A stretch of DNA of 64,000 bases, from contig CAYXEW010000001.1 of the NCBI GenBank assembly GCA_964464115.1, positions 8,740 to 72,739 on the forward strand, in the 5' to 3' direction. Made by a program: the position numbers and the translations under genes. Below, piece after piece: positions 6,219 to 59,476 of the stretch; positions within the stretch are counted from its first letter, which is position 1; every line of letters starts with the position of its first letter. A model generated the notes under the pieces. It did not search any database, had not been told where the DNA came from, and saw nothing but the letters and a program-made list of their open reading frames with translations. The stretch comes from an uncultured Verrucomicrobiota bacterium. GTDB taxonomy: Bacteria > Verrucomicrobiota > Kiritimatiellia > CAYTQP01 > CAYXEW01.

Positions 6219-6377
6219 TCAGAGCACATCAAAGGCATCTTTTCCGGCATAGCAGATGGGGCATACCCAGGATTCCGGTATATCCTCAAACGAGGTCCCC
6301 GGCGGAATGCCGCGCTCAGGATCACCTTTTGACTGATCATACACATAGCCGCAACTGGTACAAACCATCTTTTCCAT
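6219..6377 (-). CDS. rubredoxin
   Basis: [52 protein letters not shown] carries both CxxC(G) knuckles of rubredoxin at the expected spacing. The start is the internal Met of the longer ORF 6219..6464, and an AAAAAGGAA ribosome-binding site lies upstream. Confidence 0.85.
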
Positions 6378-10065: not shown

Positions 10066-10102
10066 GGGGATGATGGCGTCGCCGGATTCCCGATGCCGTT
10101 AT

Positions 10103-11062: not shown

Positions 11063-11093
11063 GATCTGACTCCCGAGAACCTGTTTCATGCTG

Positions 11094-12107: not shown

Positions 12108-12190
12108 ATCTAACGGGAATGTATTGCTACTGTCAAAGGTGTACAGTAGCGTTGAAATATTAACTTGGCAAGACAGGATCAGTTTTAGTT

Positions 12191-12973: not shown

Positions 12974-13064
12974 ATCGCTCAGACGCGGAGTTGACAGGGT
13001 AGGCATTCAGCGTTTGGCTACTGTTGATTCCAGCCTGTATTATTCATGAGTTCAAAATGCAGGG

Positions 13065-13862
13065 CTAGGGCTGCACCGATTCCTGTCTGTCTGTTGGGAC
13101 CTTTAAAATAGTCAACGTAGCGATGGCAGCTCTCTTTTCCGCCTGGCGTCGGTTTCGGCCTTCGCCTCGTCCATAACGCGTCTCTCCAATATAGACGTCG
13201 ACCGTATAGTGCCTGTCATGTGGGGGCCCCATCTCTTCTGTCACCCTGTAATGTGGTGTATGGGGCAGGTGTTTTTGGCACCACTCCTGCAAGGCACCTT
13301 TTGGATTATGATACTCATCAGAATCCAATCCCGAATAATACGGAATAAAGAGTTGTTTGACGACTTTCTGCACCGCTTTATATCCGCCGTCTTCGTAGGC
13401 GGCCCCCAGAACAGATTCTACGGCATCCGACAACACAGCATCCGTCTGCCGGACACCCTTACCAAGTCGAATATAGTCCTGAATGCTGATTTCACGGCTG
13501 ATCTCCAACAGCGCATCCCGATTGGTAATACGGCTGCGTTGCCGGGTCATATCTCCTTCCGCGAGATCCGGGCAGGTCTTATAGAGATAAGCCGCTATCG
13601 CTGCTCCCAGCATGGCATCCCCGAGAAACTCGAGGCGCTGGTTGTCCGGCGTATCCTCACCCGTTTCATTGCTGAATGAGGGGTGAGTTAAAGCTGTCTG
13701 CAAAAGTTTGTTCTTCTTAAATCTGTAGCCCAGCCTTTTTTCCAGTTTTTTATAGTTGTCGGTCATTACAGCATATTTCGAGATCCATACTCGGTTAGGA
13801 GAATACGTCAACATGTATCGTCTACCGCATGACCGCCTTGTAATCCAGTCTTTTTTAAACAC
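13065..13862 (-). CDS. rnc: ribonuclease III
   Basis: Signature ERLEFLGDAMLG, with a C-terminal dsRBD (ALQEWCQ...GEGRNRRQAEKRAA). The biological start is probably the internal Met at 13766 (MTDNYKKLEKRLGY...). Confidence 0.85.
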   Translation of the reverse strand: MFKKDWITRRSCGRRYMLTYSPNRVWISKYAVMTDNYKKLEKRLGYRFKKNKLLQTALTHPSFSNETGEDTPDNQRLEFLGDAMLGAAIAAYLYKTCPDLAEGDMTRQRSRITNRDALLEISREISIQDYIRLGKGVRQTDAVLSDAVESVLGAAYEDGGYKAVQKVVKQLFIPYYSGLDSDEYHNPKGALQEWCQKHLPHTPHYRVTEEMGPPHDRHYTVDVYIGETRYGRGEGRNRRQAEKRAAIATLTILKVPTDRQESVQP

Positions 13863-14123
13863 TTAAAGCCAGTCTAATCTGCCTTATTTATATTGAAGCG
13901 TCGCTCGTTTTTTGCTTCTCTGCTTTTGATGGCAGGAAAACTGGAAATTGAGTTTGAAGGAACTTCTTACCATGTGATGTGTAGGGGCTGTTGTCAGAAA
14001 TCTGATTGTAAGGATGAAAAGAGAGTATGAGCTATTCCCTGACAGTCTGGAGAAGATGGCCGAACGAAACCGGTCGACGGATCCATGTTTTTGTTCTGTT
14101 GATCAATTAATGGGGGATGCTCT

Positions 14124-14651
14124 GTGGAATCTGAAAAAACCAAAAATGGATTAGGCGGTCAGCCTCCAAGTGAGAGAGTCAAGCGAATCGGTGGTTACCT
14201 TCACCGGGTGATCCCCATTGCTGACGGCGCGGGCAAAGTGCTAAACTACGCTCTCAGTCCGTTGATGGTTGAGTTTCGCCCCAGAGACCTCATGCAGGTC
14301 ATTGTGGGAGCCTCTATTTTGGCTGTCCCGGTAGCTTTTACAGAGGAAACATGGAACTTGGGAGATCAGTTACCTTTTTACAATGTGCTGGCGCTGAGTG
14401 CTCTCTCTCTTCTCTTCATTGCCCTTTTTGTGTATTTTAATTTCTATCGATTTGCCTTCAAAGGGCATGCGTTAGAGTATTGTAAGCGTGTGGCGGCCAC
14501 CTATACTTTTTCGCTGTTTCTAGTAGGTGTCATTTTGACCATCATTCAGAAATGTCCATGGGGTTCCGACAATATACTCGCAGTGAAGAGAATTCTCATA
14601 GTGTCCTTTCCGGCCTCCATGAGCGCTGCCGTCAGTGACACACTGAAATAG
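14124..14651 (+). CDS. hypothetical integral membrane protein (possibly of the DUF2391 / TIGR02587 type)
   Basis: 175 aa with three to four hydrophobic helices. I only vaguely recognise the family. Confidence 0.45.
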   Translation: MESEKTKNGLGGQPPSERVKRIGGYLHRVIPIADGAGKVLNYALSPLMVEFRPRDLMQVIVGASILAVPVAFTEETWNLGDQLPFYNVLALSALSLLFIALFVYFNFYRFAFKGHALEYCKRVAATYTFSLFLVGVILTIIQKCPWGSDNILAVKRILIVSFPASMSAAVSDTLK

Positions 14652-14748
14652 GAATACGTCGGATGAGCTGCTGCAGGACATCATCGTTAAAAGGCTCCAC
14701 TTGCCGACGCTTTCGCAGGTAGTGAACGGGGTTGTAAGAGATCCCCTA

Positions 14749-14778
14749 ATCAAAAAAACCGATTATTTAGTCGGCAAA
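14749..14778 (-). terminator. rho-independent terminator of the tRNA-Met gene
   Basis: On the minus strand the tRNA 3' end is followed by the hairpin CCGACTAAATAATCGG and a run of seven T residues. Confidence 0.55.
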
Positions 14779-14780
14779 AG

Positions 14781-14857
14781 TGGTAGCGGGGGCAGGATTT
14801 GAACCTGCGACCTTCAGGTTATGAGCCTGACGAGCTGCCTGGCTGCTCCACCCCGCA
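14781..14857 (-). tRNA. tRNA-Met (anticodon CAU), initiator type
   Basis: The reverse complement folds as a cloverleaf with CCA encoded and anticodon loop CUCAUAA. It is nearly identical to E. coli tRNA-fMet, including the A11:U24 pair. Position 1:72 is unpaired (U1 against U72), and GG/CC pairs are present in the anticodon stem. Confidence 0.85.
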
Positions 14858-14932
14858 ATCAGTTGGTTTTAAGCAAGGCCTCCGAAGATGCACCTTGCTT
14901 GAAATCTTTACAAGTACTTTTCCAAACCTTTT

Positions 14933-15508
14933 TTAGAATTGTACTGCTGGGGCCGTCTCTGCACCTTCCGCCGCTTCAAATGAAGCCCGCTTCTCAAATC
15001 CAAACATTCCCGCCAATACAGTATTTGGGAATTTTCTGATCGCTATGTTATAGCCCCTGACGGCTTCGTTGTAGCGCCGGCGCTCGACCGATATGCGATT
15101 TTCGGTACCTGCCAGTTCATGCTGAAGGCTGAGGAAGTTCTGATTCGATTTGAGTTCAGGATATTTTTCAACAACGACCATCAAACGTCCCAGTGCACCT
15201 TCCAGCATAGAAGCGGCTTGTGCTTTTTGACCGGGCGATTTTGCTTCACCCCATTGACTGCGCAGACGGGTTACCTCCGTCAGCACATCCTGTTCCTGTT
15301 TGGCAAAGCCTTTTACAGTGTTGACCAGATTAGGGATCAGGTCGTATCTGCGCTGGAGTACGGTTTCCACATTGGCCCAGGCGTTATCGACCGTCTCTTC
15401 CTGTTCTATAAAGCTGTTGTACTTACCTTTTACACAGCCATACGGCAGACCTAGTACCAGGAAAATGATTCCAATGGTAATCAGCAATTTAGTCATTTTA
15501 GGTGACAT
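14933..15508 (-). CDS. LemA family protein
   Basis: An N-terminal TM anchor is followed by the LemA core (AWANVETVLQRRYDLIPNLV...KYPELKSNQNF...ERRRYNEAV). Confidence 0.85.
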   Translation of the reverse strand: MSPKMTKLLITIGIIFLVLGLPYGCVKGKYNSFIEQEETVDNAWANVETVLQRRYDLIPNLVNTVKGFAKQEQDVLTEVTRLRSQWGEAKSPGQKAQAASMLEGALGRLMVVVEKYPELKSNQNFLSLQHELAGTENRISVERRRYNEAVRGYNIAIRKFPNTVLAGMFGFEKRASFEAAEGAETAPAVQF

Positions 15509-15520
15509 GGTGTTTCTCCT

Positions 15521-16219
15521 CTATATTTGATCTACTTTATCAACTAGTTTTTCTATCGTTTTTAAATACGTTGCAAAGAGTTCTTTTACGTTGAGATTGG
15601 ACGCTTTGACCGATTCGCTCTTCAGCGCGTTCACGCTTTTCAACACACTCAAGTCCAGTTCAGTATACTTTTCAAGGAGTTCGGAGGCCTCCTGTTTTTT
15701 TGCAGGAACATCGTCGGTGTAAAGCCGCACCACAGCCCGCGTCAAAATGAGGAATGTTCCGATGGAGTGGATCATGAGCTCTTTTATAGCTTTGTCCTTT
15801 TCCCGCGTCAACAGGTAACGCTGTCGCAACTGAATGAGTTTGCCTTTGAGTTCATGCTCAATCTCGAGGCGCAGGTTTTCCCGGCTGACGTCTACTTCTT
15901 TCAACACATCCAGCCCATAGAGCACTTTGTGAGAGTCCTGCATGTCGAGCAGTTCAATGGGAAAAACATCGGCAGACTGCTTCAGTCGTTCACGGGTAAA
16001 GAGAAGGGGCGGGGGATTTCCTTTTCGGTTCCACTGCAAACTTATTTTCTGCAGTTTATTCAACTCGGATATATTGAGGTCTTCAGCGACGATAAGGAGG
16101 TTGTAATCCGAGTGCCTGCCCGTGTAATCACCGGCCGCCGCCGATCCATACAGAATGACAGCCACTGTGTTGTCCGCCCAGGCCTGCTTGATTTTTTCTG
16201 TCATTTGTTCTGGTGTCAT
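15521..16219 (-). CDS. nucleotidyltransferase-domain protein (Pol-beta superfamily) with a C-terminal helical domain
   Basis: GS-x9-D motif in VILYGSAAAGDYTGRHSDYNLLIV. The second acidic residue of the usual DxD is Asn, so the protein may be non-catalytic. It is about 232 aa and sits between the TPM and LemA genes. Confidence 0.55.
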   Translation of the reverse strand: MTPEQMTEKIKQAWADNTVAVILYGSAAAGDYTGRHSDYNLLIVAEDLNISELNKLQKISLQWNRKGNPPPLLFTRERLKQSADVFPIELLDMQDSHKVLYGLDVLKEVDVSRENLRLEIEHELKGKLIQLRQRYLLTREKDKAIKELMIHSIGTFLILTRAVVRLYTDDVPAKKQEASELLEKYTELDLSVLKSVNALKSESVKASNLNVKELFATYLKTIEKLVDKVDQI

Positions 16220-16240
16220 ATTTCTTACTCCTTTTCTAAA

Positions 16241-17059
16241 TTACCATCGTCCCCCGGCTCCTCCGCCCCCGGACATACCGCCGCCAAAGCCGCCGCCACT
16301 GAATCCACCGCCGCCACCGCGTCCGCCGCGACCGGAACTGAGGATCATTAAAAAAAGAAAGGGGTGGCGAATCGCAAGGTACCCCAAACCTATGAAGACC
16401 AGAATGTCGATGATGGAAATGCCCCGTTTTTCCCGTTTGTCTGGCGGGGCTCCAGTCATTTCACCGTCCAGGCTGACATTATATTCCCGGGCCACCAGTT
16501 GGGCCGCTCGAACCGTCCCGTTGACCAGTCCTTCTGAATAGCGACCTTCTTTAAAAGCCGGAATGATAATCCTGTCAATAATGTCTCCGACGACAGCGTC
16601 CGGGAGGCCTCCCTCCAGGCCATAGCCCACTTCTATCCATATTTCCCGCTCTTGCTGAGCCATCAGAATCAGCAGTCCATTATCTTTACCTCGCTGCCCA
16701 ATACCCCAGCCTTCAAACAGGCGGGTGGCAACATCGCGTATTTCGCCGCCTTTGAGAGAGGGCAGGGTGACCAGTTTTATTTGACTGCCTGTTTTCTGCT
16801 CCAGTGTTCTGCTGACGCTCTTGATTACCGTTGCGTCCCTTTGCTGGACCACCCCGGCAAAGTCATACACATAGCCCGGTTTTTTACTGCGTATGAGTTG
16901 TTTTAGCAGTTGATCACTTTCGACCGCCCCGTTTGCACAGAAGGGCAGCGCACACAGTATCAAAACACTGCAGAAAGCTATGGACAGTCGAATCTTGTTT
17001 GACTTCATGGAACAGACCGTAGCATGGATGATACACGGCTTACAAAACAATATTTTCAA
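16241..17059 (-). CDS. TPM-domain (YgcG/DUF477-like) protein with a Gly-rich C-terminal tail
   Basis: Signal peptide, TPM fold region, a TM segment and a GGRGGGGGFSGGGFGGG tail. It partners with LemA as in the usual LemA-TPM gene pairs. Confidence 0.75.
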   Translation of the reverse strand: MKILFCKPCIIHATVCSMKSNKIRLSIAFCSVLILCALPFCANGAVESDQLLKQLIRSKKPGYVYDFAGVVQQRDATVIKSVSRTLEQKTGSQIKLVTLPSLKGGEIRDVATRLFEGWGIGQRGKDNGLLILMAQQEREIWIEVGYGLEGGLPDAVVGDIIDRIIIPAFKEGRYSEGLVNGTVRAAQLVAREYNVSLDGEMTGAPPDKREKRGISIIDILVFIGLGYLAIRHPFLFLMILSSGRGGRGGGGGFSGGGFGGGMSGGGGAGGRW

Positions 17060-17177
17060 CAGTCTCCGTCTGTATCAACATCGCCACAAGTTCGGTCCCG
17101 CCATTCTCTACCGAAAATATAACTATTATTTGTTATTGCGGATGGCTCAGCATATTTCGTAGTACTGCAATACGTAG

Positions 17178-18494
17178 ATGAAAAGCCCTACAGGAGAATA
17201 CATCATGAAATATCCGGAACTTTCAGAAAAAACAGTATTGGATCAGTACAGTGCGGCTCAAGATATTTACGGCGAACTGAACATCGATACCGAGGTGGCC
17301 ATTCAAACAGCTCTCGAGGCTCCCATTTCGCTGCACTGCTGGCAGGCGGACGATGTCACGGGTCTGGAGGGTATTTGTGAGGAAACCGCTGGCGGCGGTA
17401 TTATGGCAACTGGCAACTATCCGGGCAAGGCCCGCAACGGTGAGGAGATGCGGCAGGATTTTAACGAGGTCCTTTCACTGCTGCCGGGAACTCACAAGCT
17501 CAATATACACGCATCGTATGCTGAAAAAGGCGGCGATAAAGTCGATCGAGACGCCTATGAGCCCAAACACTTCACCCAGTGGATAGAATGGGCCAAAGAG
17601 CACAAACTGGGGCTGGACTTTAACACCACCAATTACGCTCACCCCAAAGCAAATGACGGAATGACCCTTTCACACCCCGACAGTGCCATTCGCGACTTCT
17701 GGGTGCAACATGGCATAGCCTGCCGTTCCATTGCCGAACATATGGGGAAAGAGCTGAATAACCCTTGTGTCCTTAATCATTGGCTCCCCGACGGGATGAA
17801 AGATGATCCGGCTGACCGCTGGTCGCCGCGTCAACGCCTCCTTGAATCGCTTGACCGCATACTGTCAAAAGAGCACGGAATTGACACAACGTGGTGCAAT
17901 GATGCCGTTGAAAGCAAGCTGTTTGGTATCGGGAGCGAGGCGTATGTGGTGGGGTCTTTTGAATTTTACTGTGGCTACGCCCTGAGCCGGAAAATCAAGC
18001 TGTGCCTGGATATGGGGCATTTCCATCCGACGGAGACTATTCATGATAAAATATCCTCACTGCTGTTGTTCCTCGATTCACTGCTCATCCATGTGAGCCG
18101 TCCGATCCGTTGGGATAGTGATCATGTTGTACTATTCAATGATGATGTCAGAGCCGTCTTCCAAGAGTTGATCAGGGGCGGGGCTCTGGACCGCGTAGCT
18201 CTGGCACTGGATTTCTTTGATGCGGGTATTAACCGTATTGCAGCCTATGTAATCGGAACGCGTGCCTCGCGCAAGGCTTTGCTGTATGCGCTGCTTGAGC
18301 CCGTCCAGATGATGCAGGAATTAGAGCGGAATAATCAGAATGGACCCAAACTTGCGGTAATGGAAGAGGCCAAGACACTCCCGTTCCCCTCTGTATGGAA
18401 TATGCTCTGTGTGCGTGCCGGCGTGCCGGCCGGTATGGGATGGCTGAATGAAATTGAGTCATACGAAAACAAAATCCTGTCTAAAAGGGTATAG
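17178..18494 (+). CDS. rhaA: L-rhamnose isomerase
   Basis: LHCWQADDVTGLE matches RhaA LSMHCWQGDDVSGFE. It is about 430 aa and resembles RhaA along its full length. There is no rhaB or rhaD in the window. Confidence 0.8.
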   Translation: MKSPTGEYIMKYPELSEKTVLDQYSAAQDIYGELNIDTEVAIQTALEAPISLHCWQADDVTGLEGICEETAGGGIMATGNYPGKARNGEEMRQDFNEVLSLLPGTHKLNIHASYAEKGGDKVDRDAYEPKHFTQWIEWAKEHKLGLDFNTTNYAHPKANDGMTLSHPDSAIRDFWVQHGIACRSIAEHMGKELNNPCVLNHWLPDGMKDDPADRWSPRQRLLESLDRILSKEHGIDTTWCNDAVESKLFGIGSEAYVVGSFEFYCGYALSRKIKLCLDMGHFHPTETIHDKISSLLLFLDSLLIHVSRPIRWDSDHVVLFNDDVRAVFQELIRGGALDRVALALDFFDAGINRIAAYVIGTRASRKALLYALLEPVQMMQELERNNQNGPKLAVMEEAKTLPFPSVWNMLCVRAGVPAGMGWLNEIESYENKILSKRV

Positions 18495-18502
18495 CCTGTA
18501 TG

Positions 18503-18553
18503 ATTCAATACATACTATTCGTTATGGCGGTTTTTATGAAGTATGAAGGATAG
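18503..18553 (+). repeat. copy A of a duplicated element of about 50 bp (the second copy is at 21252-21302)
   Basis: ATTCAATA-N11-TTATGGCG(G/T)TTTTTATGAAGTATG(A/C)AGG(A/T)TAG. About 39 of 51 positions are identical between the copies. Both contain a 9-codon ORF (MAVFMKYEG and MAFFMKYAG). Confidence 0.6.
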
Positions 18554-18646
18554 TTCTCTTCCTGAAAATCGTACGAAAGAGCGGCTGATAAAGGTCAGAC
18601 CGCTCTTTTTATTTGCCCGCCTTTAGGGAAAGACTATACTGATGCC

Positions 18647-20419
18647 ATGAGTTGGAAAAAAGAAAAACCGGTCTATGTGCTGGATGACACGCTCATTAAC
18701 AAGATCGCCGCCGGCGAAATTGTGGATCGTCCGGCATCGGTTGTGAAAGAGCTGATAGAAAATGCATTGGACGCTGGAGCCGATGATATCATTGTAAAAC
18801 TGGTTGACGGGGGATGCACATTAATAACCATCAGTGACAATGGTTCAGGGATGTCCCGGGATAATGCACTGCTGAGCATTCAACGCCATGCGACAAGCAA
18901 GATCAAGACGGCTGAAGATTTGCATAGCATACTGACAATGGGCTTCCGTGGGGAGGCCCTCGCAGCTGTTTCCAGCGTGTCACGCTTTCAACTGGTAACG
19001 CGTTGCGAATCGGAGGCAACCGGTGTTGACATCAGTATTCACGGAGGCAAAATACAGGAGGTCAATGAGGTCGGAAGGGATCGCGGAACGACTGTTACGG
19101 TTGGCCATCTATTCTATAATGTCCCGGCCCGTAAGAAATTTCTGAGAGCGGAACGAACTGAACTCAATCATGCCAAGCGAGTGTTTCTGCAGTATGCACT
19201 GGCCTATTGGCATGTACGTTTTCAGTTTATTGTTGATGAGCGGACTGTTTACAGCCTGCCCGCAGAAAAAGAACTACTCCACCGGTGCGAGGCATTGATG
19301 GGTAAAGAATTTACACGTGATATGAAGTCGGTGAAATGGAGGGGTGGGGGCATACGGGTAAATGGACTGGCCGGCACCGATCAGCGGCATCTTTCCGATC
19401 GATCTGATCAGTATTATTTCATTAATAGCCGACCGGTTGTCGCCCCGATATTGTACATAGCCATCAACGAAGCCTACCAGCAGATAGTGCCGAAGGGACG
19501 TCATCCGGCCCTGGTATTATTTATCGAGCTGCCGCCGGAGCTTATCGATGTAAATGTTCACCCCGCCAAAAAAGAAGTACGCTTCAAACGGCCTATTGAA
19601 ATGAGGGAAGCCGTGAAGACGGCGCTGCTACAGGCGCTTGGACAGTCCGGCGCGCGTTCAGGCGTAGCAGGACAGTCTGGTGGTATGCCGTTTTCGCCTA
19701 GAAAACCGGCAATACGAATGCCCGATATTCCGATCCTTCCTCCCTTTACATATCCTGGCAGTCAACTGGATTTGAGCCTGACGACGAAGAAGAATGAAAA
19801 GGAGCTCGACCGGGAATCAGAGCAGGGTTCTGTTGGAACCGCCTCGCCATGGTCATGGTGCAGGATCATCGGCCAGGCCGGTGGCACCTTTGTGCTGTTG
19901 GAAACAGAAGAAGGTATTGTGGTTATGGATCCGCGGGCGGCACATGAACGCGTTCTGTACGAAAAAATGAAAACAATGATGGAAGCGGGCATCAAAGAAG
20001 AACAGGGCCTGCTGATACCGGAGACCGTTGAGCTCGACTCAAATGCAGCGGCGCGGGTAAGTGAACACCTTGAAAAATTACAGCAGATGGGTTTTGGTAT
20101 TGATGAATTTGGAATAAATGCCTTTATCGTGGACCGTATTCCAGCCTGTCTTGATGACGTAAAAGCAGGCCCTATTATCGAGGATATTGCTCACGGATTA
20201 GAGCAGGGGACGGGCCGTGGCGAAGTGATTGAAGACCAATTGCTTAAATGGGTTAGCCAGTCTGCCGTCAGACATGAGGAATCGCTGACTATCAGAGAAA
20301 TCGAGCAGCTCGTCAATGATCTTGCCAGATGCGATATGCCCTATACGAGCCCGCGGGGAAAATCCTGTATTATCTTTATGGGCTACAACGAATTAAACCG
20401 CAAATTCGGCAGGGCGTGA
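18647..20419 (+). CDS. mutL: DNA mismatch repair protein MutL
   Basis: The N-terminal GHKL ATPase shows AAGEIVDRPASVVKELIENALDAGA. The protein is 590 aa and has the MutL C-terminal dimerisation region. Confidence 0.9.
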   Translation: MSWKKEKPVYVLDDTLINKIAAGEIVDRPASVVKELIENALDAGADDIIVKLVDGGCTLITISDNGSGMSRDNALLSIQRHATSKIKTAEDLHSILTMGFRGEALAAVSSVSRFQLVTRCESEATGVDISIHGGKIQEVNEVGRDRGTTVTVGHLFYNVPARKKFLRAERTELNHAKRVFLQYALAYWHVRFQFIVDERTVYSLPAEKELLHRCEALMGKEFTRDMKSVKWRGGGIRVNGLAGTDQRHLSDRSDQYYFINSRPVVAPILYIAINEAYQQIVPKGRHPALVLFIELPPELIDVNVHPAKKEVRFKRPIEMREAVKTALLQALGQSGARSGVAGQSGGMPFSPRKPAIRMPDIPILPPFTYPGSQLDLSLTTKKNEKELDRESEQGSVGTASPWSWCRIIGQAGGTFVLLETEEGIVVMDPRAAHERVLYEKMKTMMEAGIKEEQGLLIPETVELDSNAAARVSEHLEKLQQMGFGIDEFGINAFIVDRIPACLDDVKAGPIIEDIAHGLEQGTGRGEVIEDQLLKWVSQSAVRHEESLTIREIEQLVNDLARCDMPYTSPRGKSCIIFMGYNELNRKFGRA

Positions 20420-20428
20420 AAGTTTATT

Positions 20429-20505
20429 TGGCGTACCCAGCAGGAGTCGAACCTGCAACCTCCTGATCCGTAGTCAGGTGCTCTATCCAATTGAGCTATG
20501 GGTAC
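20429..20505 (-). tRNA. tRNA-Arg (anticodon ACG)
   Basis: The reverse complement GTACCCATAGCTCAATTGGATAGAGCACCTGACTACGGATCAGGAGGTTGCAGGTTCGACTCCTGCTGGGTACGCCA folds as a cloverleaf. The anticodon loop is CUACGGA and the CCA end is encoded. Confidence 0.9.
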
Positions 20506-20617: not shown

Positions 20618-20975
20618 GGGGGCGACTGGCTTCGACGTGTAGGTTGAAGCATTTGTTGCGTGTCGAGGATATCGGTGGGCCTCGTAAATCATCCGGTAAA
20701 AACAATAAAAGCCAACCAAGAATTGGCCCTCGCAGCGTAACATAAGTCTGCGACGTCTCTACGTTGACGCCTGCTAGGCGATAGAGGCGACGACAGCAGG
20801 CTGGCTCCAAAGCCGGGCAGCCGGGCCGAGGAGTAAGATCTATTTCGTGGCCGCTGGTCCGATGATCAGTCTGTTCGTCGACAGTTCATCGGGCGAGATT
20901 AAATGACGGAATACACACGTAGATGCATATGTGACTCTTATGCGGACGGGGGTTCAATTCCCCCCGCCTCCACCA
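20618..20975 (+). ncRNA. ssrA: tmRNA (ssrA)
   Basis: The 5' end GGGGGCGACUGGCUUCGACG pairs with the 3' end CGCCUCCACCA to form a tRNA-Ala-like acceptor stem carrying the G3-U70 identity pair. A T-arm (GGGGGUUCAAUUCCCCC) and an internal tag ORF (...GCC AAC CAA GAA TTG GCC CTC GCA GCG TAA, peptide ...ANQELALAA) are present. Confidence 0.9.
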
Positions 20976-21002
20976 TTTGAAAAAAACAAACTGATCCTGT
21001 TG

Positions 21003-21036
21003 CCGATTCCTTAACGCGGGGTCGGTTTTTATCTTT
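21003..21036 (+). terminator. putative terminator after ssrA (a weak stem followed by TTTTTATCTTTT)
   Basis: The CCGA...TCGG stem is short, but a T-rich tract lies 28 nt after the tmRNA 3' end. Confidence 0.3.
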
Positions 21037-21251
21037 TGATTTATTAGCCTGTATTATGCACGCATTCAAAATATTGTAGCTGCGAGACGCCAGAGGTGCT
21101 GCTGTAATTTTCTACCGCAAGTCTCTGGCAACGAAGCAGATGCAGCATTTTCAACGCGCCCTCTGGGTAAAAAACGCCATTGACTCTTGTATTTAATTCC
21201 GTTATCGACTTCAAATTCAACTTTTACTCTCACTTATCATTATTAATTGCT

Positions 21252-21302
21252 ATTCAATATGTACCATTTCTTATGGCGTTTTTTATGAAGTATGCAGGTT
21301 AG
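21252..21302 (+). repeat. copy B of the duplicated element of about 50 bp (see 18503-18553)
   Basis: It lies inside the AT-rich spacer of the ssrA-adjacent insertion, about 350 bp upstream of the 21649 ORF. Confidence 0.6.
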
Positions 21303-21648
21303 ACTGATCTATTCATAAAAATGGATGAGAATGATTGTACCTCTTGGGTTTGGGATGGATATGGATTTTTGATCGTGAATAATTCAGGTTAGCGACTTAT
21401 GCTGTATAGAGCGTTTTGCAACATGCTCCGGATTCACTCCCGCTTCGGAAAATCTCATTCCCTTCCTGGCAATGTGAGTGAGACACCAAACGGAGAAAGT
21501 GCGAAGGGTTGGAACAAAGAGGGGGTGCCATCAGAAGGACTGCACTGTTGACAGCGCGGGGCGTCTTGCGGTAGAAACCAAGTTATTGGAGCATAGCTTT
21601 ATCCACGAGTGCAGGAAGCGAAAGTGTTACCCTTTTTAGACAAACTCT

Positions 21649-23145
21649 TTGTCATTATCAGATAGGAGAAACAAGGTGCGAGATTATCAGACAGAAGAAG
21701 CGGGAGCAAGTACAGCAAGGCTGGAAACCTTAATTAATGCGTTTTTAAGCAGGTGCAATAAAAGCGAAGTAAAGCTGCGTGCAGATTTAACGATACGAAA
21801 AGAACCAGGATTTACAAGAGCTTCAAGCGGCGCAAAGGTGTGGGAAATCAATCCTGGTGTACTTGATAGAGATGCTTTCCTGAATGAAATTGCTGACGAT
21901 GTTGGGCTTCATGCAGAAACACTTCGCTCAGAAGACTGGGCACCATTAAGGGATCAGATTTGGTTTGACGCAAAACTTGAATTAGCTGTGCGAGATGTGC
22001 CGTGGATACAAGAAACTGATATCCGTATAACCGATTTATATGATCCAAAAGTGCGCTTACTCGTAGGGTTGGGAGATGTCAGGGGCTCAGCTTCATACCA
22101 ATCGTTCTACGTTAATTTTTATCGAAATAGAGAGCTGTCGGAAGTCCAGGCTATTTTTAACACCGCGGGTTATCGATTGATACCCATACCTGTTCAAATG
22201 GAGGAAAAAGATCTTTCTAAAATGGGGCGAGTGTTGAACACAATTTTGGGTGATAACCGTATTATACGGATGGCTTTTACAAAACCAACTAAAGAAGCAG
22301 CAGTCAAAACCGGATTATTTAATGTGATCGATCCTGATACTTTAGATACGGGTGTAGTCAATACTGCGGCTATTGAGAGGGAAGGTTCAGAACGGCATTT
22401 TGTAAGGCGAACTACAGATGGTCTTGGAACTATTGCGAAGGCAAAGGAGAGTCTTGCCAAAACAGGGCGTACGCTTGGAAACAGTATTACGGGTATAATA
22501 GGTTTGCGTGGATTTGGTTCTGCAGTTTTAGGCAAACTTTTGACCGATTTAGAGGCGCCCAACGAAGTTCGTATAGCTGTTAGAGATGCCAGTTATCAAC
22601 ATGCAGTGGAAGTAATAGATTGGATTAAAAAGGCCTATGAGAAAAAAACCGGTAAACCAACACAAACGATCATTCGCATTCTAAAATATTCGGAGTTTGA
22701 TTTTGAACACGAATCACATCCTCTGAAACAAGTCGATGTTTTGTTTGATTGCACAAAAGTCGGCATGAATGATGATCACTATTCTCTGCGTTATTTAGGA
22801 TTCATCACTCCCACTATGATTGTATTCCATGCTGCTTATAGGGATAAAGATAAACAACCGCGTGTGCCGCCTATATTATGCAAGGCCAGAGCGTTTGGAG
22901 CCGTGGTCCATAATGGTATAGCTGATTGGCTGGGGCATCAATATATGCAGGTAACGGAAGATTTGAAACGGGCTTCGGGATTGATGCCGGATATGCCGGA
23001 GTGGAATGATGATAAGTGGGTAACTATTCGCAACCAGCTTGAAAACGTTGCTTTCAAGTGGGCCAATTTACAGGGATTAAAAGATGCTATGGATCTTTTG
23101 GGTGAGTCAGGTGTTGAAGGTCCTAAAGCAGACGGGCATGAATGA
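21649..23145 (+). CDS. hypothetical protein: an N-terminal region of about 270 aa with no family I recognise, fused to a shikimate/quinate-dehydrogenase-like NAD(P)-binding domain. Composition is foreign.
   Basis: The 498-codon ORF is AT-rich (about 40 % GC in the first 100 nt against about 50 % in the neighbouring mutL) and uses A/T-ending codons. A GTG start at 21676, 8 nt after AGGAG, is an alternative start. The C-terminal half aligns by eye with AroE-family motifs: GIIGLRGFGSAVLGKLL...RIAVRDAS (Rossmann loop and NRT-like strand), DVLFDCTKVGM (INATSVGM-like) and HNGIADWLGHQYMQ (NGLGMLxxQA-like). Confidence 0.6.
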   Translation: MSLSDRRNKVRDYQTEEAGASTARLETLINAFLSRCNKSEVKLRADLTIRKEPGFTRASSGAKVWEINPGVLDRDAFLNEIADDVGLHAETLRSEDWAPLRDQIWFDAKLELAVRDVPWIQETDIRITDLYDPKVRLLVGLGDVRGSASYQSFYVNFYRNRELSEVQAIFNTAGYRLIPIPVQMEEKDLSKMGRVLNTILGDNRIIRMAFTKPTKEAAVKTGLFNVIDPDTLDTGVVNTAAIEREGSERHFVRRTTDGLGTIAKAKESLAKTGRTLGNSITGIIGLRGFGSAVLGKLLTDLEAPNEVRIAVRDASYQHAVEVIDWIKKAYEKKTGKPTQTIIRILKYSEFDFEHESHPLKQVDVLFDCTKVGMNDDHYSLRYLGFITPTMIVFHAAYRDKDKQPRVPPILCKARAFGAVVHNGIADWLGHQYMQVTEDLKRASGLMPDMPEWNDDKWVTIRNQLENVAFKWANLQGLKDAMDLLGESGVEGPKADGHE

Positions 23146-23258
23146 GTTGTAGTAGCTACGATTTGGATCGTCCTGATGGGCCGGATTGTCAGTCTACTTC
23201 TAACGGCCCACCTTCCTCATGGAGCTGACATACTTCACCTTGCCATTATAGGATTTTA

Positions 23259-24125
23259 CTACAGCAACTTCGCCAGTAGTGCATGATCATCCTTTCCCAC
23301 GCTGTACTTTTCTGCTGGTACAACTTCCATTCCGTTTTCCCAGGTCGAGAAACGATAGAGGGTGGCAAAAGTGAATTCGGGAGCTTCTTTCCCCTGTCCT
23401 CCGACGACTTCGGCTCCGCGCCGGACGTTGTCCATCATCCAGGCCGGCAGGCGCAGGTGATAGGGGTTTCGCGCCACTTCACCTTTATGTAAAGACAGAG
23501 CGGTTAGCAGGGTGCCCACGTTATCTTCCGACAGCTCTACCATCATATTAGGCTGTTTCATGGGCCGCCAGAATTCTGTCTGTACAAGGTGTGTGGAAAA
23601 GTCGTTTTCCATGTCTGCCAGAGCGTCCATCACCAACTGGTGCACACCTTCGTGAGTTCGATTCCAGTCTTCAGCATGCGGAAAAAACAGTATGCTTGGA
23701 TGGATCTGTATAAGCAGCTGTTTGATGAGCTGGACAGCATCGAACCACGGGGCCGGTGTCTCCGATCGCGCCAACGGTGTTATATTGTCGAGACCTAAGT
23801 CTTGAGGAACAACCAGTTCAAACCCGAGAAAGCGGCATCCTTTTTTCACTTCGTCGAGTCGTCGCTCCCGCTGGTCTTTCCGGCTGCCCAGCGTGACGGC
23901 AACATTAATGACTCGGGCATGTATCTCTTTTTGAAATCTCAGCGGGAGTCCTCCGACAATGCATTCATCATCGGGATGCGGCGAAAACAGTAAAACAGGA
24001 CCTGCCGCCGGCGGTGGGGCACCGGTCTGAAGATTCCGTTTCCATTGTACATCAGCCACTATGCTGCGGCCCTCACGGAGAGCGGATGAAAACTGTTGGC
24101 AATAATCTAAAAACGATTTATTCAT
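23259..24125 (-). CDS. PIG-L/LmbE family deacetylase
   Basis: The hallmark SPHPDDE lies near the N-terminus. The protein is 288 aa and its composition matches the host genome. Confidence 0.75.
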   Translation of the reverse strand: MNKSFLDYCQQFSSALREGRSIVADVQWKRNLQTGAPPPAAGPVLLFSPHPDDECIVGGLPLRFQKEIHARVINVAVTLGSRKDQRERRLDEVKKGCRFLGFELVVPQDLGLDNITPLARSETPAPWFDAVQLIKQLLIQIHPSILFFPHAEDWNRTHEGVHQLVMDALADMENDFSTHLVQTEFWRPMKQPNMMVELSEDNVGTLLTALSLHKGEVARNPYHLRLPAWMMDNVRRGAEVVGGQGKEAPEFTFATLYRFSTWENGMEVVPAEKYSVGKDDHALLAKLL

Positions 24126-24133
24126 AATGCAGG

Positions 24134-25012
24134 TTAAGCCCTCGGGTGAAACTTCTGATGAATGGACTTCAAGCGGGCGGCGTCGACGTGGGTGTAAATC
24201 TGAGTGGTGGCGATATCGGCGTGACCGAGCATTTCCTGGATAACGCGAAGCGGTGCCCCGTTGGCCAGCAGATGGGTGGCGAAGGAGTGCCGCAGGGTAT
24301 GCGGTGTTACATTTTTACTAATTCCGGCTTTCAGCGCGTACGCTTTAATCAGCTTCCAGAGGCCTTTACGTGAAAACCCGGTTCCGCGGCAGGTGAGGAA
24401 AACAACATCCGTTTCTGCTTGAGCGTTTCGATCGTGGTTACAGTATTGCTGTATTGCCGACAGAGCGGAGGCATTAATGGGAATAATGCGTTCTTTACGG
24501 CCTTTGCCCATACATTTGATATAGCGATCATCAAAACGTATGTCTGAACGCTTCAGGAAGGCCAGCTCTGAGACGCGCATTCCACTACCGTAAAAGGTCT
24601 CCAGAATGGCCCTGTCCCGCAACCCGTTTCGCTTTTCAATGTCCGGTGTCTGCAGGAGCCTATCCACTTCTTTGGCCGTAAGCGTATCGGGCAGGATTTT
24701 CCAGAGTTTGGGGGACTCCATATTGTCTGCGATGTTCTGACTAATCAGGGATTCCTGCTGCAGGTAGCGAAAAAACATTTTGATGGCCACCAGACGACGG
24801 GAGAGCGAGGTCGTTTCCAGGCCCCTCTTCTTTTCCTCCATGAGGTAATCCAGGATATGGTGCCGTGTGACATCAGATGGTGTATAGATGCTGCGCTTTT
24901 GCAGAAAATGAAAAAAGGTCTTTAGATCCGAATTATAGGCGCTACTCGTGTTCGCACTCAGCCCCCGTTCCACATTCAGGTAATCGAGAAACTGGTCCAG
25001 CAATACCTGCAT
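24134..25012 (-). CDS. xerD: tyrosine site-specific recombinase XerD (chromosome dimer resolution)
   Basis: 292 aa. LDYLNVERGLSANTSSAYNSDL at the N-terminus, the R..HxxR..Y catalytic set, and a C-terminus (TTQIYTHV...HQKFHPRA) matching the XerD ending ...HHPRA. Confidence 0.8.
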   Translation of the reverse strand: MQVLLDQFLDYLNVERGLSANTSSAYNSDLKTFFHFLQKRSIYTPSDVTRHHILDYLMEEKKRGLETTSLSRRLVAIKMFFRYLQQESLISQNIADNMESPKLWKILPDTLTAKEVDRLLQTPDIEKRNGLRDRAILETFYGSGMRVSELAFLKRSDIRFDDRYIKCMGKGRKERIIPINASALSAIQQYCNHDRNAQAETDVVFLTCRGTGFSRKGLWKLIKAYALKAGISKNVTPHTLRHSFATHLLANGAPLRVIQEMLGHADIATTQIYTHVDAARLKSIHQKFHPRA

Positions 25013-25015
25013 GCG

Positions 25016-25909
25016 TTATACACTCAAAGGGTTGCCGGTCAGCAATTCATAGGCCTCGATGTATTTCCGGCTCGTCTTTTCTATAACTTCTGCAGGCAGG
25101 GCGGGGCAGGGCGGAGTTTTATTCCAGTCCAGCGCCTCCAGATAATCTCTCACAAATTGTTTGTCGAAGGATACAGGAGAGGTGCCTGGCTGATACTGTT
25201 CTCTGGGCCAAAACCGTGAACTGTCCGGTGTAAAAATTTCATCAATTAAAACCAGTTGATCATTCAGCATACCGAATTCAAACTTGGTGTCAGCCAGGAT
25301 AATACCCTTCTCAAGTGCCCGCTTGGCAGCTCTCACATACAGATCGAGGCTGATTTGGCGCAGCAGGACTCCAGTTTCCTGTCCGACCGTCTCACACATA
25401 ACTTCAAAGGAGATATTTTCATCGTGACCTGAATCGGCTTTTGATGATGGCGTAAAGATGGCCTCATCGAGTGGGTCCGCCATCCGGTAGCCTTCGCGGA
25501 GCGGTAGACCGCAGACGGAACCGCAGCGCTGGTATTCTTTCCATCCGGAACCAATCAAATAGCCCCGCACAATACACTCAACGGGCAGGGGGGAAACCTT
25601 TTTGACCAGCATCGAACGCCCTTTAAGCTGATCGGCATACGGCTGAAGCGATTCAGGAAAATCCGCTACCGAAACTGACACCATATGATGGGGGACAATA
25701 TCCTTCATTTGTTTAAACCACCACGCTGACAACTGTGTAAGCACCGCTCCTTTATAGGGTATGGGCTGATCCAGTACACAGTCAAATGCTGAAATCCTGT
25801 CCGTGGCTACAATGAGCAATTCATGGCCCAGATCATATACTTCCCGCACTTTTCCCGATTTGAATTTCGGGATTCCCGGAAGGTTTTCTATAGAAGGGTT
25901 TGGTGTCAT
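25016..25909 (-). CDS. purC: phosphoribosylaminoimidazole-succinocarboxamide synthase (SAICAR synthetase)
   Basis: GKVREVYDLGHELLIVATDRISAFD is the SAICAR synthetase signature. The protein is about 297 aa. Confidence 0.88.
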   Translation of the reverse strand: MTPNPSIENLPGIPKFKSGKVREVYDLGHELLIVATDRISAFDCVLDQPIPYKGAVLTQLSAWWFKQMKDIVPHHMVSVSVADFPESLQPYADQLKGRSMLVKKVSPLPVECIVRGYLIGSGWKEYQRCGSVCGLPLREGYRMADPLDEAIFTPSSKADSGHDENISFEVMCETVGQETGVLLRQISLDLYVRAAKRALEKGIILADTKFEFGMLNDQLVLIDEIFTPDSSRFWPREQYQPGTSPVSFDKQFVRDYLEALDWNKTPPCPALPAEVIEKTSRKYIEAYELLTGNPLSV

Positions 25910-25934
25910 GATGTACTCCTTGTCATGTATCTGA

Positions 25935-26264
25935 TCAGCGGCACTCAGCCGGCAGCTTTTTTCGCGCCGAAGGCAAACCTATTGCAAGATTGCAGTCAAA
26001 GCCGAGTTCTGTAATAGCGCGCTCAATGTTTTTGTCCGCCACCTTGACGCGGTTGTAGTCAACGGTGACCACACCGTTTGAAATATCGGTATCGACAGAT
26101 CGAACCTCCTGAATGCTTCGCAATTTTTTCACAATGAGTTGCGCACATGCGTCACTCTTCATGCCGGGCACATCAAATGATTTTACACGGTCGTCTTCCC
26201 TGTTTAGAAAACAGCCATTTAACAACAGTATCACGGTTAACATAAAAATAGTTGAATGCTTCAT
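25935..26264 (-). CDS. small lipoprotein with a degenerate heavy-metal-associated (HMA-like) fold
   Basis: Lipobox LLNGC. GMKSDACAQ occupies the position of the GMxCxxC motif but has only one Cys. The protein is about 109 aa. Confidence 0.4.
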   Translation of the reverse strand: MKHSTIFMLTVILLLNGCFLNREDDRVKSFDVPGMKSDACAQLIVKKLRSIQEVRSVDTDISNGVVTVDYNRVKVADKNIERAITELGFDCNLAIGLPSARKKLPAECR

Positions 26265-26405
26265 AATCTATATGGTTCCTGTTATGTTTTTATCCTCTAA
26301 GCACGTATAGCTCAGATACGGTGGCTCTGCATTCCTATTAATAACAGGCTCTTAATTTTTTTCCACATTTTATTTGAACAAGATTGGGATCTAAGCATAT
26401 TGTAT

Positions 26406-27983
26406 TCACTGAAGAGGCGAGTGTACGTTTTTCCCATAGGGTTCCTCACCCTGACCTCCTTGGCGTGCACCGCCTCTTCTTTTTTCACCCTTCATCTCAT
26501 CCATTATCCGAATCGCATCAGAAGCTTTCTTAGATGCCGCGGGGTACAAATCTCCAAATTGCTGAATAAACTCACGGTAGATACTACGCGCCGTATCATA
26601 GTCCCCGTTTTTTAAATAGCACAGGCCCAGGTTCAATCTGTACTGGGGGGGGGCATCACTGTTGGCATACAGTTCTTCATAGATTTCAATGGCTTCGGGT
26701 ATATGGTTGCGCTGTAAGTAGGCATTGGCCAGTCTCAATTTTGGATTCCAGTGCGATTTCAGCTCCCCGCTGATTGCTTCATACAACGGGATCGCTTTAC
26801 TCCATTCTCCCTGCATGTAATAGATGTCGGCTAAACCCATACCTGTCTCCAGCTCCGGGCGCGTTTTTCGTTCTTTTATAAAAAGGTGATAAAAAGCCAT
26901 CGTGCACAATACGCCTGCCAGGACTCCGCCGGTTATTAACACGCTGCCGGCAACGGCCGTCAGCCGTCGATTGAATAGTTGCTTCTTTTCTGAAAAGCGA
27001 TGAGCATAGAGATCGAGTGAAAGAGCCGTGAGGGATAGGGCCTGCGCCGGATATTGCAACTGATTCGATTGCATGGCAAACCTAACTGTATGACTCAAGT
27101 CTTCTGTCCGATACCGGTATTGCCAGGCTCTCGGGTTGCGGTTTAAATGATAAAGCATCCATTCTACAGCCAGAATAATGCTGTCGGGCAGTTCGGTACA
27201 AAGCAATTCCTGAAGATCGCAATAACCATTCACAGCGTAGCTGAGTAAATGTTCGCGCAGCACGTCGCTATCGGTTGCGGTATAAAGCAAATTGAAAAGC
27301 AGTATATGTTGAATGGGCTGGTGCTGAAGGTCCCGTTGAGTCATGAACTCATCAATGCAGCGTGTGATGATTGTTACCAGTTCCCTCAGTTCAAGTTTAA
27401 TTTCCGCCACGTTATCTGTGGCGCCGCCTTGCCTCTCGAGTATCCGCTGAAGGGCTTCCAGTTCGAGCAGCAGCATCACGCACAGGTCAACATCGACAGA
27501 TTCACTTGTGCTGTCTGTTTCGAGCCAGCCCTTTTCACCGGAGCGCCAGCAGAACTGGCAGGTGTGTTCGAAATCGTAACAGCGCATCAGCGCCTCAGCG
27601 TATGAAGTCCATCGTTCCAGCGCAGCCCGTTCGTCTGCCTCTGCAAAATAGCCCCCCTCAATGAGTATTTCGCAACCGGCGGCGAGGAGGGGATAGGGCG
27701 CGGAAAAATGGCGCAGGGGTTCCAACGGATCCGAATGATGTTGCAGGATAAACGTGTCCATCAATTGCCGGTAATCGGCGCTTTCGCAGGACACCGTTCG
27801 CAGCGCGCTCATAAAACTGAACGGATTGCCTTCCAGTCGCACTTCGCCGTCTGTCCTGTCAAAGGAGGCTGCCGAATGCAGCCATCGTTCCTGAGCGGCA
27901 TGATACACAGCTCGGTAGGACGCGGGAAGCAATTCGCTGTAATCAGCAACGGCGCCGTTAAGATGGTTTACAGTATTATCCAC
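26406..27983 (-). CDS. TPR-repeat protein with a TM segment
   Basis: The C-terminal third has tandem TPR-like repeats (AIPLYEAI...LANAYLQRNHIPEAIEIYEEL...LNLGLCYLKNGDYDTARSIYREF), preceded by the TM helix VAGSVLITGGVLAGVLCTMAFY. Confidence 0.6.
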   Translation of the reverse strand: MDNTVNHLNGAVADYSELLPASYRAVYHAAQERWLHSAASFDRTDGEVRLEGNPFSFMSALRTVSCESADYRQLMDTFILQHHSDPLEPLRHFSAPYPLLAAGCEILIEGGYFAEADERAALERWTSYAEALMRCYDFEHTCQFCWRSGEKGWLETDSTSESVDVDLCVMLLLELEALQRILERQGGATDNVAEIKLELRELVTIITRCIDEFMTQRDLQHQPIQHILLFNLLYTATDSDVLREHLLSYAVNGYCDLQELLCTELPDSIILAVEWMLYHLNRNPRAWQYRYRTEDLSHTVRFAMQSNQLQYPAQALSLTALSLDLYAHRFSEKKQLFNRRLTAVAGSVLITGGVLAGVLCTMAFYHLFIKERKTRPELETGMGLADIYYMQGEWSKAIPLYEAISGELKSHWNPKLRLANAYLQRNHIPEAIEIYEELYANSDAPPQYRLNLGLCYLKNGDYDTARSIYREFIQQFGDLYPAASKKASDAIRIMDEMKGEKRRGGARQGGQGEEPYGKNVHSPLQ

Positions 27984-59181: not shown

Positions 59182-59476
59182 GCATACGGCGCGATGGCCT
59201 TCGGCCATTAGCGCCCTACGAAGGAGCCATCTCCACTTCGCTTCGGCTGTTGCCATGGATTTGCGGCAGGAAACTACAGCGGCACCCTGGCGCCCATGCA
59301 AAGCGTGGCAAGTTCGCAGCCCTGTCCCACTTATGCGGGATACAGCATTTTGAACACGTGAAGAATACAGGCTAAAACCATTGCAGAGACTGTGTTTTTT
59401 GTGTATAGGTGGTCACACTTTTTGGTTTATGTTATGAATTGGTTAGAAATAGTTAAACATCGATGAGAGGGCGGTT

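Follow-up and report, generated by a model that had tools for sequence, protein, structure and literature searches.

A shikimate-dehydrogenase-like gene of foreign composition beside ssrA in a Verrucomicrobiota-type genome, with relatives in giant multi-enzyme proteins of mobile elements

The stretch of DNA analysed here (called the window; 64,000 nucleotides of contig CAYXEW010000001.1, from an uncultured Verrucomicrobiota bacterium) carries a single open reading frame (ORF) of aberrant composition 3' of the transfer-messenger RNA (tmRNA) gene ssrA, at 21676-23145. The best explanation overall, to which we give a probability of about 0.75, is that this is a horizontally acquired gene for a shikimate-dehydrogenase-like (SDH-like) enzyme, lying in a native stretch of a genome of the PVC (Planctomycetes, Verrucomicrobia, Chlamydiae) type. 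The horizontal origin of the ORF is well supported, because its composition, its rarity and the mobile-element company of its relatives together fit no other reading. Its base composition and codons are atypical and match those of the relatives, its distribution is patchy, and the homologues are found in other genomic backgrounds and on mobile elements. The route by which it arrived is a separate question, and integration at the 3' end of the tmRNA gene, for which the argument is proximity, is unproven.

The reference for composition was the set of 49 ORFs in the window that do not overlap and are at least 120 aa long. The ORF has a GC content of 0.426 and a GC content at third codon positions (GC3) of 0.345, compared with averages for the 49 of 0.511 ± 0.025 and 0.556 ± 0.050. 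GC3 in the other 48 is 0.49-0.67, with a minimum of 0.490, and the ORF is the sole outlier. First and second codon positions (GC1 and GC2) are ordinary, the deficit being confined to silent sites. The codon-adaptation value calculated against the pooled other ORFs is the lowest in the window (z = -2.9), and among the ORFs of at least 250 aa none stands further from the pooled host genes in synonymous-codon usage (z = +3.9). Its codon-usage distance to the genes of its relatives in the loci L085 and L086 (see below) is 0.115-0.176, as against 0.24 to the host. A preliminary description of the sequence had judged the codon usage to be unlike that of every other gene in the window, and had estimated GC contents by hand for the ORF and its neighbours; the computed values agree (mutL 0.504, LmbE-like gene 0.521, xerD 0.512, ORF 0.426), and when GC, GC3 and codon usage are calculated properly within the window the ORF stays an outlier.

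A rival reading is that the ORF is an old native gene, AT-rich through gene-specific constraints or low expression. In its favour, the gene is intact and on average under purifying selection, and the flanks carry no mobility genes. Against it, GC3 lies about 0.15 under the lowest value among the other 48, with the deficit at silent sites while GC1 and GC2 are ordinary, and no homologue is found in relatives of the host, the known homologues having the same low GC, in low-GC genomes, and sitting on mobile elements. A native origin is consequently very improbable.

The demonstrable anomaly is the ORF alone, and not the whole interval 20976-23258. The preliminary description had the sequence change character from the end of ssrA to about 23250; this holds for the ORF but not for the spacer that precedes it. 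Certainly the lowest-GC 2.2-kb stretch of the 64 kb begins at 20901 (0.426, with the next lowest elsewhere at 0.461 and a window mean for such stretches of 0.506 ± 0.021), and a two-boundary likelihood model of GC content places the left edge at about 20975 (support 20885-21195) and the right edge at about 22855 (support 22785-23295), for a gain of 19 in log-likelihood. But the spacer between ssrA and the ORF, which had been described as of high AT content and low complexity, is neither unusually AT-rich for this genome nor of low complexity. Its GC content of 0.419 is inside the range of 0.23-0.58 for intergenic regions of the window and is matched by several of them (0.408, 0.421, 0.421), tandem repeats are absent from it, and it compresses just as the window does (ratio 0.374, window mean 0.373 ± 0.004).

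The spacer also contains DNA of host type. The core sequence AGCCTGTATNATNCA is present in five copies in the window where 0.06 would be expected, and all of them are intergenic. The 27-nt motif A of the element beside ssrA is found three times in the window, and its 51-nt motif B has a counterpart of 84% identity at 18503-18553, in the spacer between rhaA and mutL. The element beside ssrA has two ends, AGCCTGTAT and ATGCAGGTT, that lie 257 nt apart, form an imperfect inverted repeat and pair with each other in the predicted minimum-free-energy structure (z = -2.2); the copy at 18493-18553 is contiguous and 61 nt long. Four of the five copies are just 3' of a co-oriented gene, these being the ORF 1915-2316, a rhomboid gene, rhaA and ssrA. 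The element may be related to miniature inverted-repeat transposable elements or to repetitive extragenic palindromic sequences, or it may be a motif of 3' untranslated regions. Because the GC content and compressibility of the spacer are ordinary, and because the repeat at 21046-21302 belongs to the host genome, the arguably foreign interval is roughly 21.3-23.2 kb.

It is worth adding that two perfect 13-nt inverted repeats are nested in this spacer (21109-21121/21565-21577 and 21168-21180/21273-21285), of which the inner pair takes in the core of motif B; the chance expectation for each pair in 650 bp is, by our own estimate, about 0.003. No Rfam family was found in the spacer at E <= 1, no Pfam match among its small ORFs, and no excess of RNA structure in 21303-21690 (z = +0.19).

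The family to which the encoded protein belongs is extremely small. An exhaustive HMMER search of 1.84 billion representative proteins gave 7 members, the query included. A word-indexed search of 5.8 billion clusters returned only the query and the stand-alone protein P0002, and the family profile returned the same two. There was no family match by tblastn in plasmids and phages, and tblastn and profile scans of viral and metagenome contigs gave no confirmed relative. In the proteins P0125, P0126 and P0127 the homologous sequence is one module of a much larger polypeptide (Table 1). The start and end of the ORF are the start and end of this module, and the two are colinear throughout, with 54-67% identity. 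P0127 also stops shortly after its module (about 25 residues past it), and hence the ends of the ORF are natural domain boundaries. P0125 appears shorter than the other two, but the 5' end of its contig extends a P0126-like frame at 83% identity, and P0125 is therefore a piece of a giant gene. The modules in L085 and L086 have the same composition as the ORF, with a GC content of 0.42-0.44 and a GC3 of 0.32-0.34, in loci of about 0.40 GC.

The giant proteins have a signal-peptide-like start, a Zn-dependent alcohol dehydrogenase (Zn-ADH) resembling threonine dehydrogenase or scyllo-inosose dehydrogenase, and a class II aldolase/epimerase. Among them only P0126 has a second Zn-ADH. Just before the module there is a weak GNAT-like stretch, which gives a marginal Pfam match in the P0125 fragment. 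Every one of the domains of the giants falls below the curated equivalog cut-offs. A motif HCHSTYSHSPGN is conserved between the domains of the giants. The ORF, which is like the module end to end, has none of these additional parts: the signal-peptide-like N-terminus, both Zn-ADHs and the aldolase are missing, as are the GNAT-like stretch and a C-terminal extension of some 340 aa, and so is the excisionase-integrase pair found upstream of the giants. The window copy is a module-sized unit with clean domain boundaries, carrying no other giant domain and no mobility gene. The fungal pentafunctional AROM protein is a further case of a shikimate-dehydrogenase domain within a multi-enzyme chain. 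In AROM, however, the partners are dehydroquinate (DHQ) synthase, 5-enolpyruvylshikimate-3-phosphate (EPSP) synthase, shikimate kinase and dehydroquinase, whereas in the giants they are Zn-ADH and class II aldolase; and unlike AROM the giants are bacterial, carried by mobile elements, and have a signal-peptide-like start.

The mobile setting of the giants is clearest in L087, where the gene for P0127 is the main cargo of a complete element at a tRNA-Ser gene (Table 1). The attachment (att) sites of this element are perfect 27-bp repeats, at 6298-6324 (the 3' end of the tRNA) and 17205-17231, which score 27 against a maximum of 12 in shuffled sequence, and the far copy is 74 nt past the stop codon of the giant. 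A serine recombinase gene abuts attR in this locus. In L085 (5116-16001), MerR-type and primase-type genes are followed by an HTH_17 gene, an integrase and the giant gene, an order that in L087 takes up 8578-17131. The contigs are unrelated, yet identity is 52% between the integrases of L085 and L087 (E = 8e-133) and 45% between their HTH_17 proteins, and so the order excisionase, integrase, giant is a conserved unit and no coincidence. This suggests, from the sequences of the two loci, an element family with the giant gene as its constant cargo. The gene for P0002 adjoins a DDE transposase.

The reading frame of the ORF is open over 21649..23145, and it is the one long ORF of the interval 20976-23258, as had been described. 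The likeliest start is GTG at 21676, which gives 489 aa and stands six bases after a ribosome-binding site (AGGAGA at 21665-21670); an alternative is TTG at 21649. The gene is intact: its frame is unbroken, a ribosome-binding site precedes it, and all the residues invariant in the family are present. Comparison with the P0125 module gives a nonsynonymous divergence (dN) of 0.27 and a proportion of synonymous differences (pS) of about 0.70, which is saturated, with a dN/dS ratio of about 0.14; these values imply long divergence under purifying selection.

The 489-aa protein has no Pfam domain at E <= 0.1, Shikimate_DH and Shikimate_dh_N included. In NCBIfam there are only weak aroE matches, over residues 198-415 (E = 1e-5). 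The family profile, on the other hand, matches shikimate dehydrogenases in the PDB, first 3don (1.5e-9) and then 1nvt and 2egg, and the TxPxK, (A/V)VNT and NTDG motifs line up between the profile and these solved structures. The invariant residues of the family are K206, D248, S138/S140, T202, N229, T247, the GLRGFG loop and Q422, and they map onto the corresponding motifs of 3don and 1nvt. Thus the catalytic Lys (TxPxK) and Asp (NTDG), the substrate-binding S-x-S, the Asn and the Gln are all kept. The Lys and Asp presumably correspond to K65 and D102 of E. coli AroE. The protein has the two domains of the superfamily, an alpha/beta substrate domain and a Rossmann domain, and is modelled by AlphaFold2 with a predicted local distance difference test (pLDDT) score of 79.7. 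Structural relatives include 5-ketofructose reductase (PDB 7cok), shikimate/quinate dehydrogenases, SDH-like proteins, and the shikimate-dehydrogenase domain of AROM.

The protein is therefore best described as a divergent member of the shikimate-dehydrogenase fold, with an active site that is apparently intact. Structure-based identity to the AroE/YdiB/SDH superfamily is 16%, and unlike those proteins it has an extra N-terminal domain of 125 aa and a helical tail of 50 aa. In the predicted architecture a complete shikimate/quinate-dehydrogenase fold comes after an N-terminal domain of about 125 aa that is specific to the family and for which neither structure nor sequence comparison gave a match. 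The product would be an intact NAD(P)-dependent oxidoreductase and is probably functional. 5-Ketofructose reductases are described as relatives of shikimate dehydrogenases (PMC7954740). Because of the fold, the partner domains in the giants and the non-shikimate member 7cok, the substrate is most likely a cyclitol or a sugar acid, and not necessarily shikimate. An identification as AroE was rejected, since the curated cut-offs are missed by far, and the name should not be applied. A reading as a defence-system or phage protein was likewise rejected: the protein matches no PADLOC defence model at E <= 0.1 and no PHROG family, and tblastn gives no match in phages or plasmids.

The setting of the ORF is native on both sides. 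The tRNA-Arg gene and ssrA follow mutL; the 3' end of the tRNA-Arg gene points to mutL and away from the ORF. ssrA is full length (positions 1-374/374 of the Rfam model RF00023) and of host composition, encodes the tag ANQELALAA and has a 3' CCA; its end at 20975, as first described, is given by both ARAGORN and Rfam. It is followed by a hairpin with a 9-pair stem (5 G-C pairs) and then TTTTATCTTT, which is predicted to close the ssrA transcription unit. On the right the LmbE-like gene (GC 0.521, GC3 0.536) is native, and next to it are xerD, also of native composition (GC 0.512, GC3 0.608), and purC.

The host is, from its protein sequences, a deep-branching and poorly sampled lineage of PVC type, Kiritimatiellia-like or Verrucomicrobiota-like. 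The nearest MutL is 50% identical, and the named matches are metagenome-assembled genomes (MAGs) of Kiritimatiellia or Verrucomicrobiota. The nearest LmbE-like protein is at most 59% identical (80 loci from 185,579 species-representative genomes), and none of these 80 loci has a tmRNA gene near the LmbE-like homologue. A scan of metagenomes for the tmRNA tag ANQELALAA gave 80 loci, with a best tmRNA identity of 72%, and no gene neighbouring the ORF in the window was found in them. The three Kiritimatiellia-type loci with the closest MutL (L082, L083 and L084) share a synteny among themselves, TPR-TPR-ExbB-ExbD-ExbD-(498 aa)-MutL-(199 aa)-infA, from which 10000-20419 of the window differs, having rhaA upstream of mutL and tRNA-Arg and ssrA downstream; no tRNA or tmRNA gene is present on those three contigs.

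An assembly chimera, or a binning artefact of a metagenome-assembled genome, would also place a foreign gene among native ones. The source appears to be one contig of 73.8 kb, seen once, and the neighbouring proteins are all singleton clusters at 90% identity. But the segment lies inside the contig, where native genes stand on both sides of it at distances within 0.7 kb and 0.1 kb, host-type repeats adjoin it on the left, and the protein has a record in both NCBI and Logan. Such an artefact is hardly credible here.

The preliminary description proposed that the gene is a one-gene islet integrated at the tmRNA gene. In this form the gene would have come with an element that used a tyrosine integrase to enter the 3' end of ssrA, and the integrase, the excisionase and attR, with perhaps the remainder of a longer cargo gene, would then have been lost by deletion. 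Several observations favour this. Islands integrated at tDNA (tRNA and tmRNA genes) are defined by the tDNA, a displaced tDNA fragment at the far end, and a tyrosine integrase that is of neither the Xer nor the integron type, and among the tDNA targets of islands the tmRNA genes show the strongest enrichment (PMC4383910). The islands of the Islander collection (Hudson, Lau and Williams 2015, PMC4383910) have intact tDNA at one end, as here with full-length ssrA; foreign-composition DNA stands 3' of an intact tmRNA gene, and the cargo family is island-borne in L087. We note further that members of the family are on just such an element at the tRNA-Ser gene of L087, with its 27-bp att repeats, that L085 has the excisionase-integrase pair too, that tDNA and cargo are co-oriented both in L087 and in the window, and that the GC change-point is at the end of ssrA.

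The hallmarks of such an island are, however, missing at ssrA: there is no integrase and no ssrA fragment, and one gene only, so that the Islander definition would not class the locus as an island. The query of the att search was the terminal 76 nt of ssrA with a further 15 nt, aligned locally on both strands. At the right boundary, where a search for a partial duplicate of the ssrA 3' end had been suggested, nothing stands above chance: the best score in 21040-26500 is 10.5, against 10.0 ± 1.1 (maximum 13.5) for shuffled sequence. The same query gave only chance-level matches in the rest of the window. In L087 the same method recovers the perfect 27-bp repeat. A repeat finder and a scan for T-arm motifs gave no att site, the candidate pairs D7 and I7 being at chance level. 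A tblastn search with the integrases of L085 and L087 found only the native XerD, at 26-28% identity. Over 20901-23400, tblastn with the four longest relatives together with P0128 and P0129, and with all called proteins of L001, L085, L086, L087 and L088, gave nothing outside the ORF, and there is no other ORF with a family match in 20976-23258. The earlier statement that neither an integrase, nor a transposase, nor a convincing att duplication is present was thus correct.

Several structural features of the locus also argue against entry at ssrA. No remnant of an integrase, an excisionase or an island gene is detected in 20901-23400, and the other domains of the giants have left no remnant on either side of the ORF. 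In the spacer 23146-23258 there is neither an att fragment nor any significant trace of the C-terminal extension of the giants. The ends of the ORF are natural module boundaries and not random truncation points. Since the GC content of the spacer is ordinary, the change-point at 20975 is less convincing as a boundary. Moreover, in contrast to the Islander tDNA islands, host-type repeat DNA is interposed between ssrA and the gene; the repeat at 21046-21302 being native, the foreign DNA does not run from the end of ssrA on, unless the repeat moved in later. A simple integration at ssrA would have foreign DNA starting within the gene or directly behind it. Of the proposed islet, the foreign one-gene cargo stands, and its entry at ssrA, with integrase and att sites absent, is unproven. 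A decayed element targeted to ssrA would be a possibility of well under even odds, and another route into the ssrA-LmbE spacer fits equally well.

Three further candidate features were examined and rejected. A similarity of 13 aa to P0126, obtained by reading through the stop codon of the ORF, is insignificant (score 26, null 25 ± 3.6). Transposon-like ends (the one inverted repeat of a flanking kind, at 21231-21244/23005-23018, 14 nt, 93%) are at chance level, and the right arm is inside the ORF. The xerD gene is not a hidden island integrase, since the protein passes the XerD equivalog cut-off (360.9, cut-off 329.6) and the gene has native GC3; the XerD hallmarks and native composition reported earlier for 24134-25012 are hence upheld.

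The other route would be an entry unrelated to ssrA, for instance by a transposon, by illegitimate recombination after transformation, or by recombination at the host repeat. The nearness of ssrA would then be coincidental, or the spacer would merely be tolerant of insertions. It is consistent with this that the stand-alone P0002 adjoins a transposase, that host-type repeat DNA is to the left of the ORF, and that there are no att sites. In addition, a crude three-query tblastn gave a tyrosine recombinase in the 4 kb 3' of ssrA for 0/28 contigs that carry the same tag and have at least 1.5 kb of flank. Against it, neither terminal inverted repeats nor a target-site duplication surround the ORF, no transposase remnant is present, and the prior for acquisition next to tDNA is high (PMC4383910). 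Taken by itself, this route is about as probable as entry at ssrA, at less than even odds. As a separate observation, 9 of the 59 metagenome contigs with an ANQELALAA tmRNA (L089-L168 set) end within 100 nt of the 3' end of the gene and 3 of the 59 end within that distance of its 5' end, which is a mild excess of assembly breaks just after ssrA.

Horizontal acquisition of an SDH-like enzyme gene remains the preferred explanation, and several points weigh against it. Synonymous divergence from all the sampled relatives is saturated, and the donor is not among them; its GC content would have been about 40%. Recency of the acquisition is suggested only by the lack of GC amelioration. The compositional reference is 64 kb of the host genome. 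The arrangement ssrA-LmbE-xerD occurs in none of the fetched loci (80, 3 and 80 in the three sets), and these include no genome with an empty site. The association with mobile elements amounts to two well-resolved loci and one transposase neighbour. As regards the product, its scores in the aroE models are far below the cut-offs (NF001319, 24.3 against 252 bits; TIGR00507, 21.5 against 200.2 bits), the loops 137-144 and 217-247 are poorly modelled by AlphaFold2, and the enzymatic function proposed is one read from fold and motifs.

Table 1. Coordinates of the features of the ssrA locus, of the encoded protein, of its relatives and of the L087 element.
Feature	Position	Strand	Remarks
mutL	window, 18647-20419		directly before tRNA-Arg; GC 0.504
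tRNA-Arg(ACG)	window, 20429..20505	-	ARAGORN; Rfam tRNA 69.7 bits
ssrA (tmRNA)	window, 20618..20975	+	ARAGORN; Rfam RF00023 186.4 bits
Intrinsic-terminator-like hairpin and T-run	window, 21002..21036	+	terminator scan
Host-type repeated intergenic element	window, 21046..21302	+	motif A 21046-21072, motif B 21252-21302
Copies of the repeat element	window, 2529-2543(+), 13032-13058(+), 18493-18553(+), 21046-21302(+), 59347-59373(-)		
Leader upstream of ORF	window, 21303..21675	+	GC 0.448
Anomalous ORF	window, 21676..23145	+	stand-alone shikimate-dehydrogenase-like module, intact, foreign composition
N-terminal domain of ORF, residues 1 to ~125	window, 21676..22050	+	conserved across family, confidently modelled
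Two-domain shikimate/quinate-dehydrogenase-fold core, residues ~126-440	window, 22051..22995	+	
Convergent intergenic spacer	window, 23146..23258		ORF stop to LmbE-like stop
PIG-L/LmbE-family deacetylase gene	window, 23259..24125	-	Pfam PF02585, E = 3e-10
xerD recombinase	window, 24134..25012	-	TIGR02225 360.9 bits, cut-off 329.6
Core motifs of the 489-aa protein	residues: GSAS 138-140, TKPTK (K206), VNT (N229), TDG (D248), GLRGFG 276-281, GHQ 420-422		
P0125	locus L086		1199 aa; 67% identity; module = residues 371-855
P0126	L085, 6555-16001		3148 aa; 64% identity; module = residues 2317-2801
P0127	L087, 10001-17131		2376 aa; 54% identity; module = residues 1866-2351
P0002			JGI protein, 714 aa, stand-alone; 42% identity
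P0128			fragment
P0129			kinase-SDH fusion, distant; 26% identity
L087 source			NCBI assembly GCA_964570585.1, CAZMYR010000002.1
L087 island	L087, 6235-17231		complete 10.9-kb element at tRNA-Ser(GGA)
L087 tRNA-Ser(GGA)	L087, 6235-6324		
L087 gene order after tRNA-Ser			trypsin-like gene, 246-aa gene, HTH_31, HTH_17 (excisionase-type), tyrosine integrase, giant
L087 tyrosine integrase	L087, 8815-9873		
L087 giant gene (P0127)	L087, 10001-17131		main cargo

Elsewhere in the window there is a second and milder dip in GC content at 15400-16219 (0.417 at 15400-15799). A 232-aa ORF lies on it (15521-16219, minus strand), with a weak match to a nucleotidyltransferase domain and an unusually low GC2 of 0.288. 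Because its GC3 is normal (0.562), this ORF is probably not foreign.

An islet beside tDNA is ordinary biology, and a horizontally acquired gene near tDNA belongs to a known class. The case does carry a caution, in that composition alone flagged the right gene, while the story of a tmRNA hot spot needs att sites or an integrase. The main value is in the cargo: a family of 7 members in 1.84 billion proteins, with no Pfam family, a confidently predicted N-terminal domain and an SDH-type active site. In the two complete giants the module belongs to proteins of 2,376 and 3,148 residues, which are conserved cargo of small integrative elements. It is conceivable, although doubtful, that the ORF is a fission product or a free-standing ancestor of one module of these giant polypeptides, which would unite the enzymes of a whole pathway and be a class of cargo previously undescribed. 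If this is true, the giant cargo and its own excisionase-integrase pair diverge together on small elements that integrate at tRNA genes, and a single module has spread from a background where relatives have about 40% GC into a PVC-type host of 51% GC, where it has become fixed beside ssrA. As a soluble-looking enzyme of 489 aa, it could reveal the chemistry of the giant mobile proteins.

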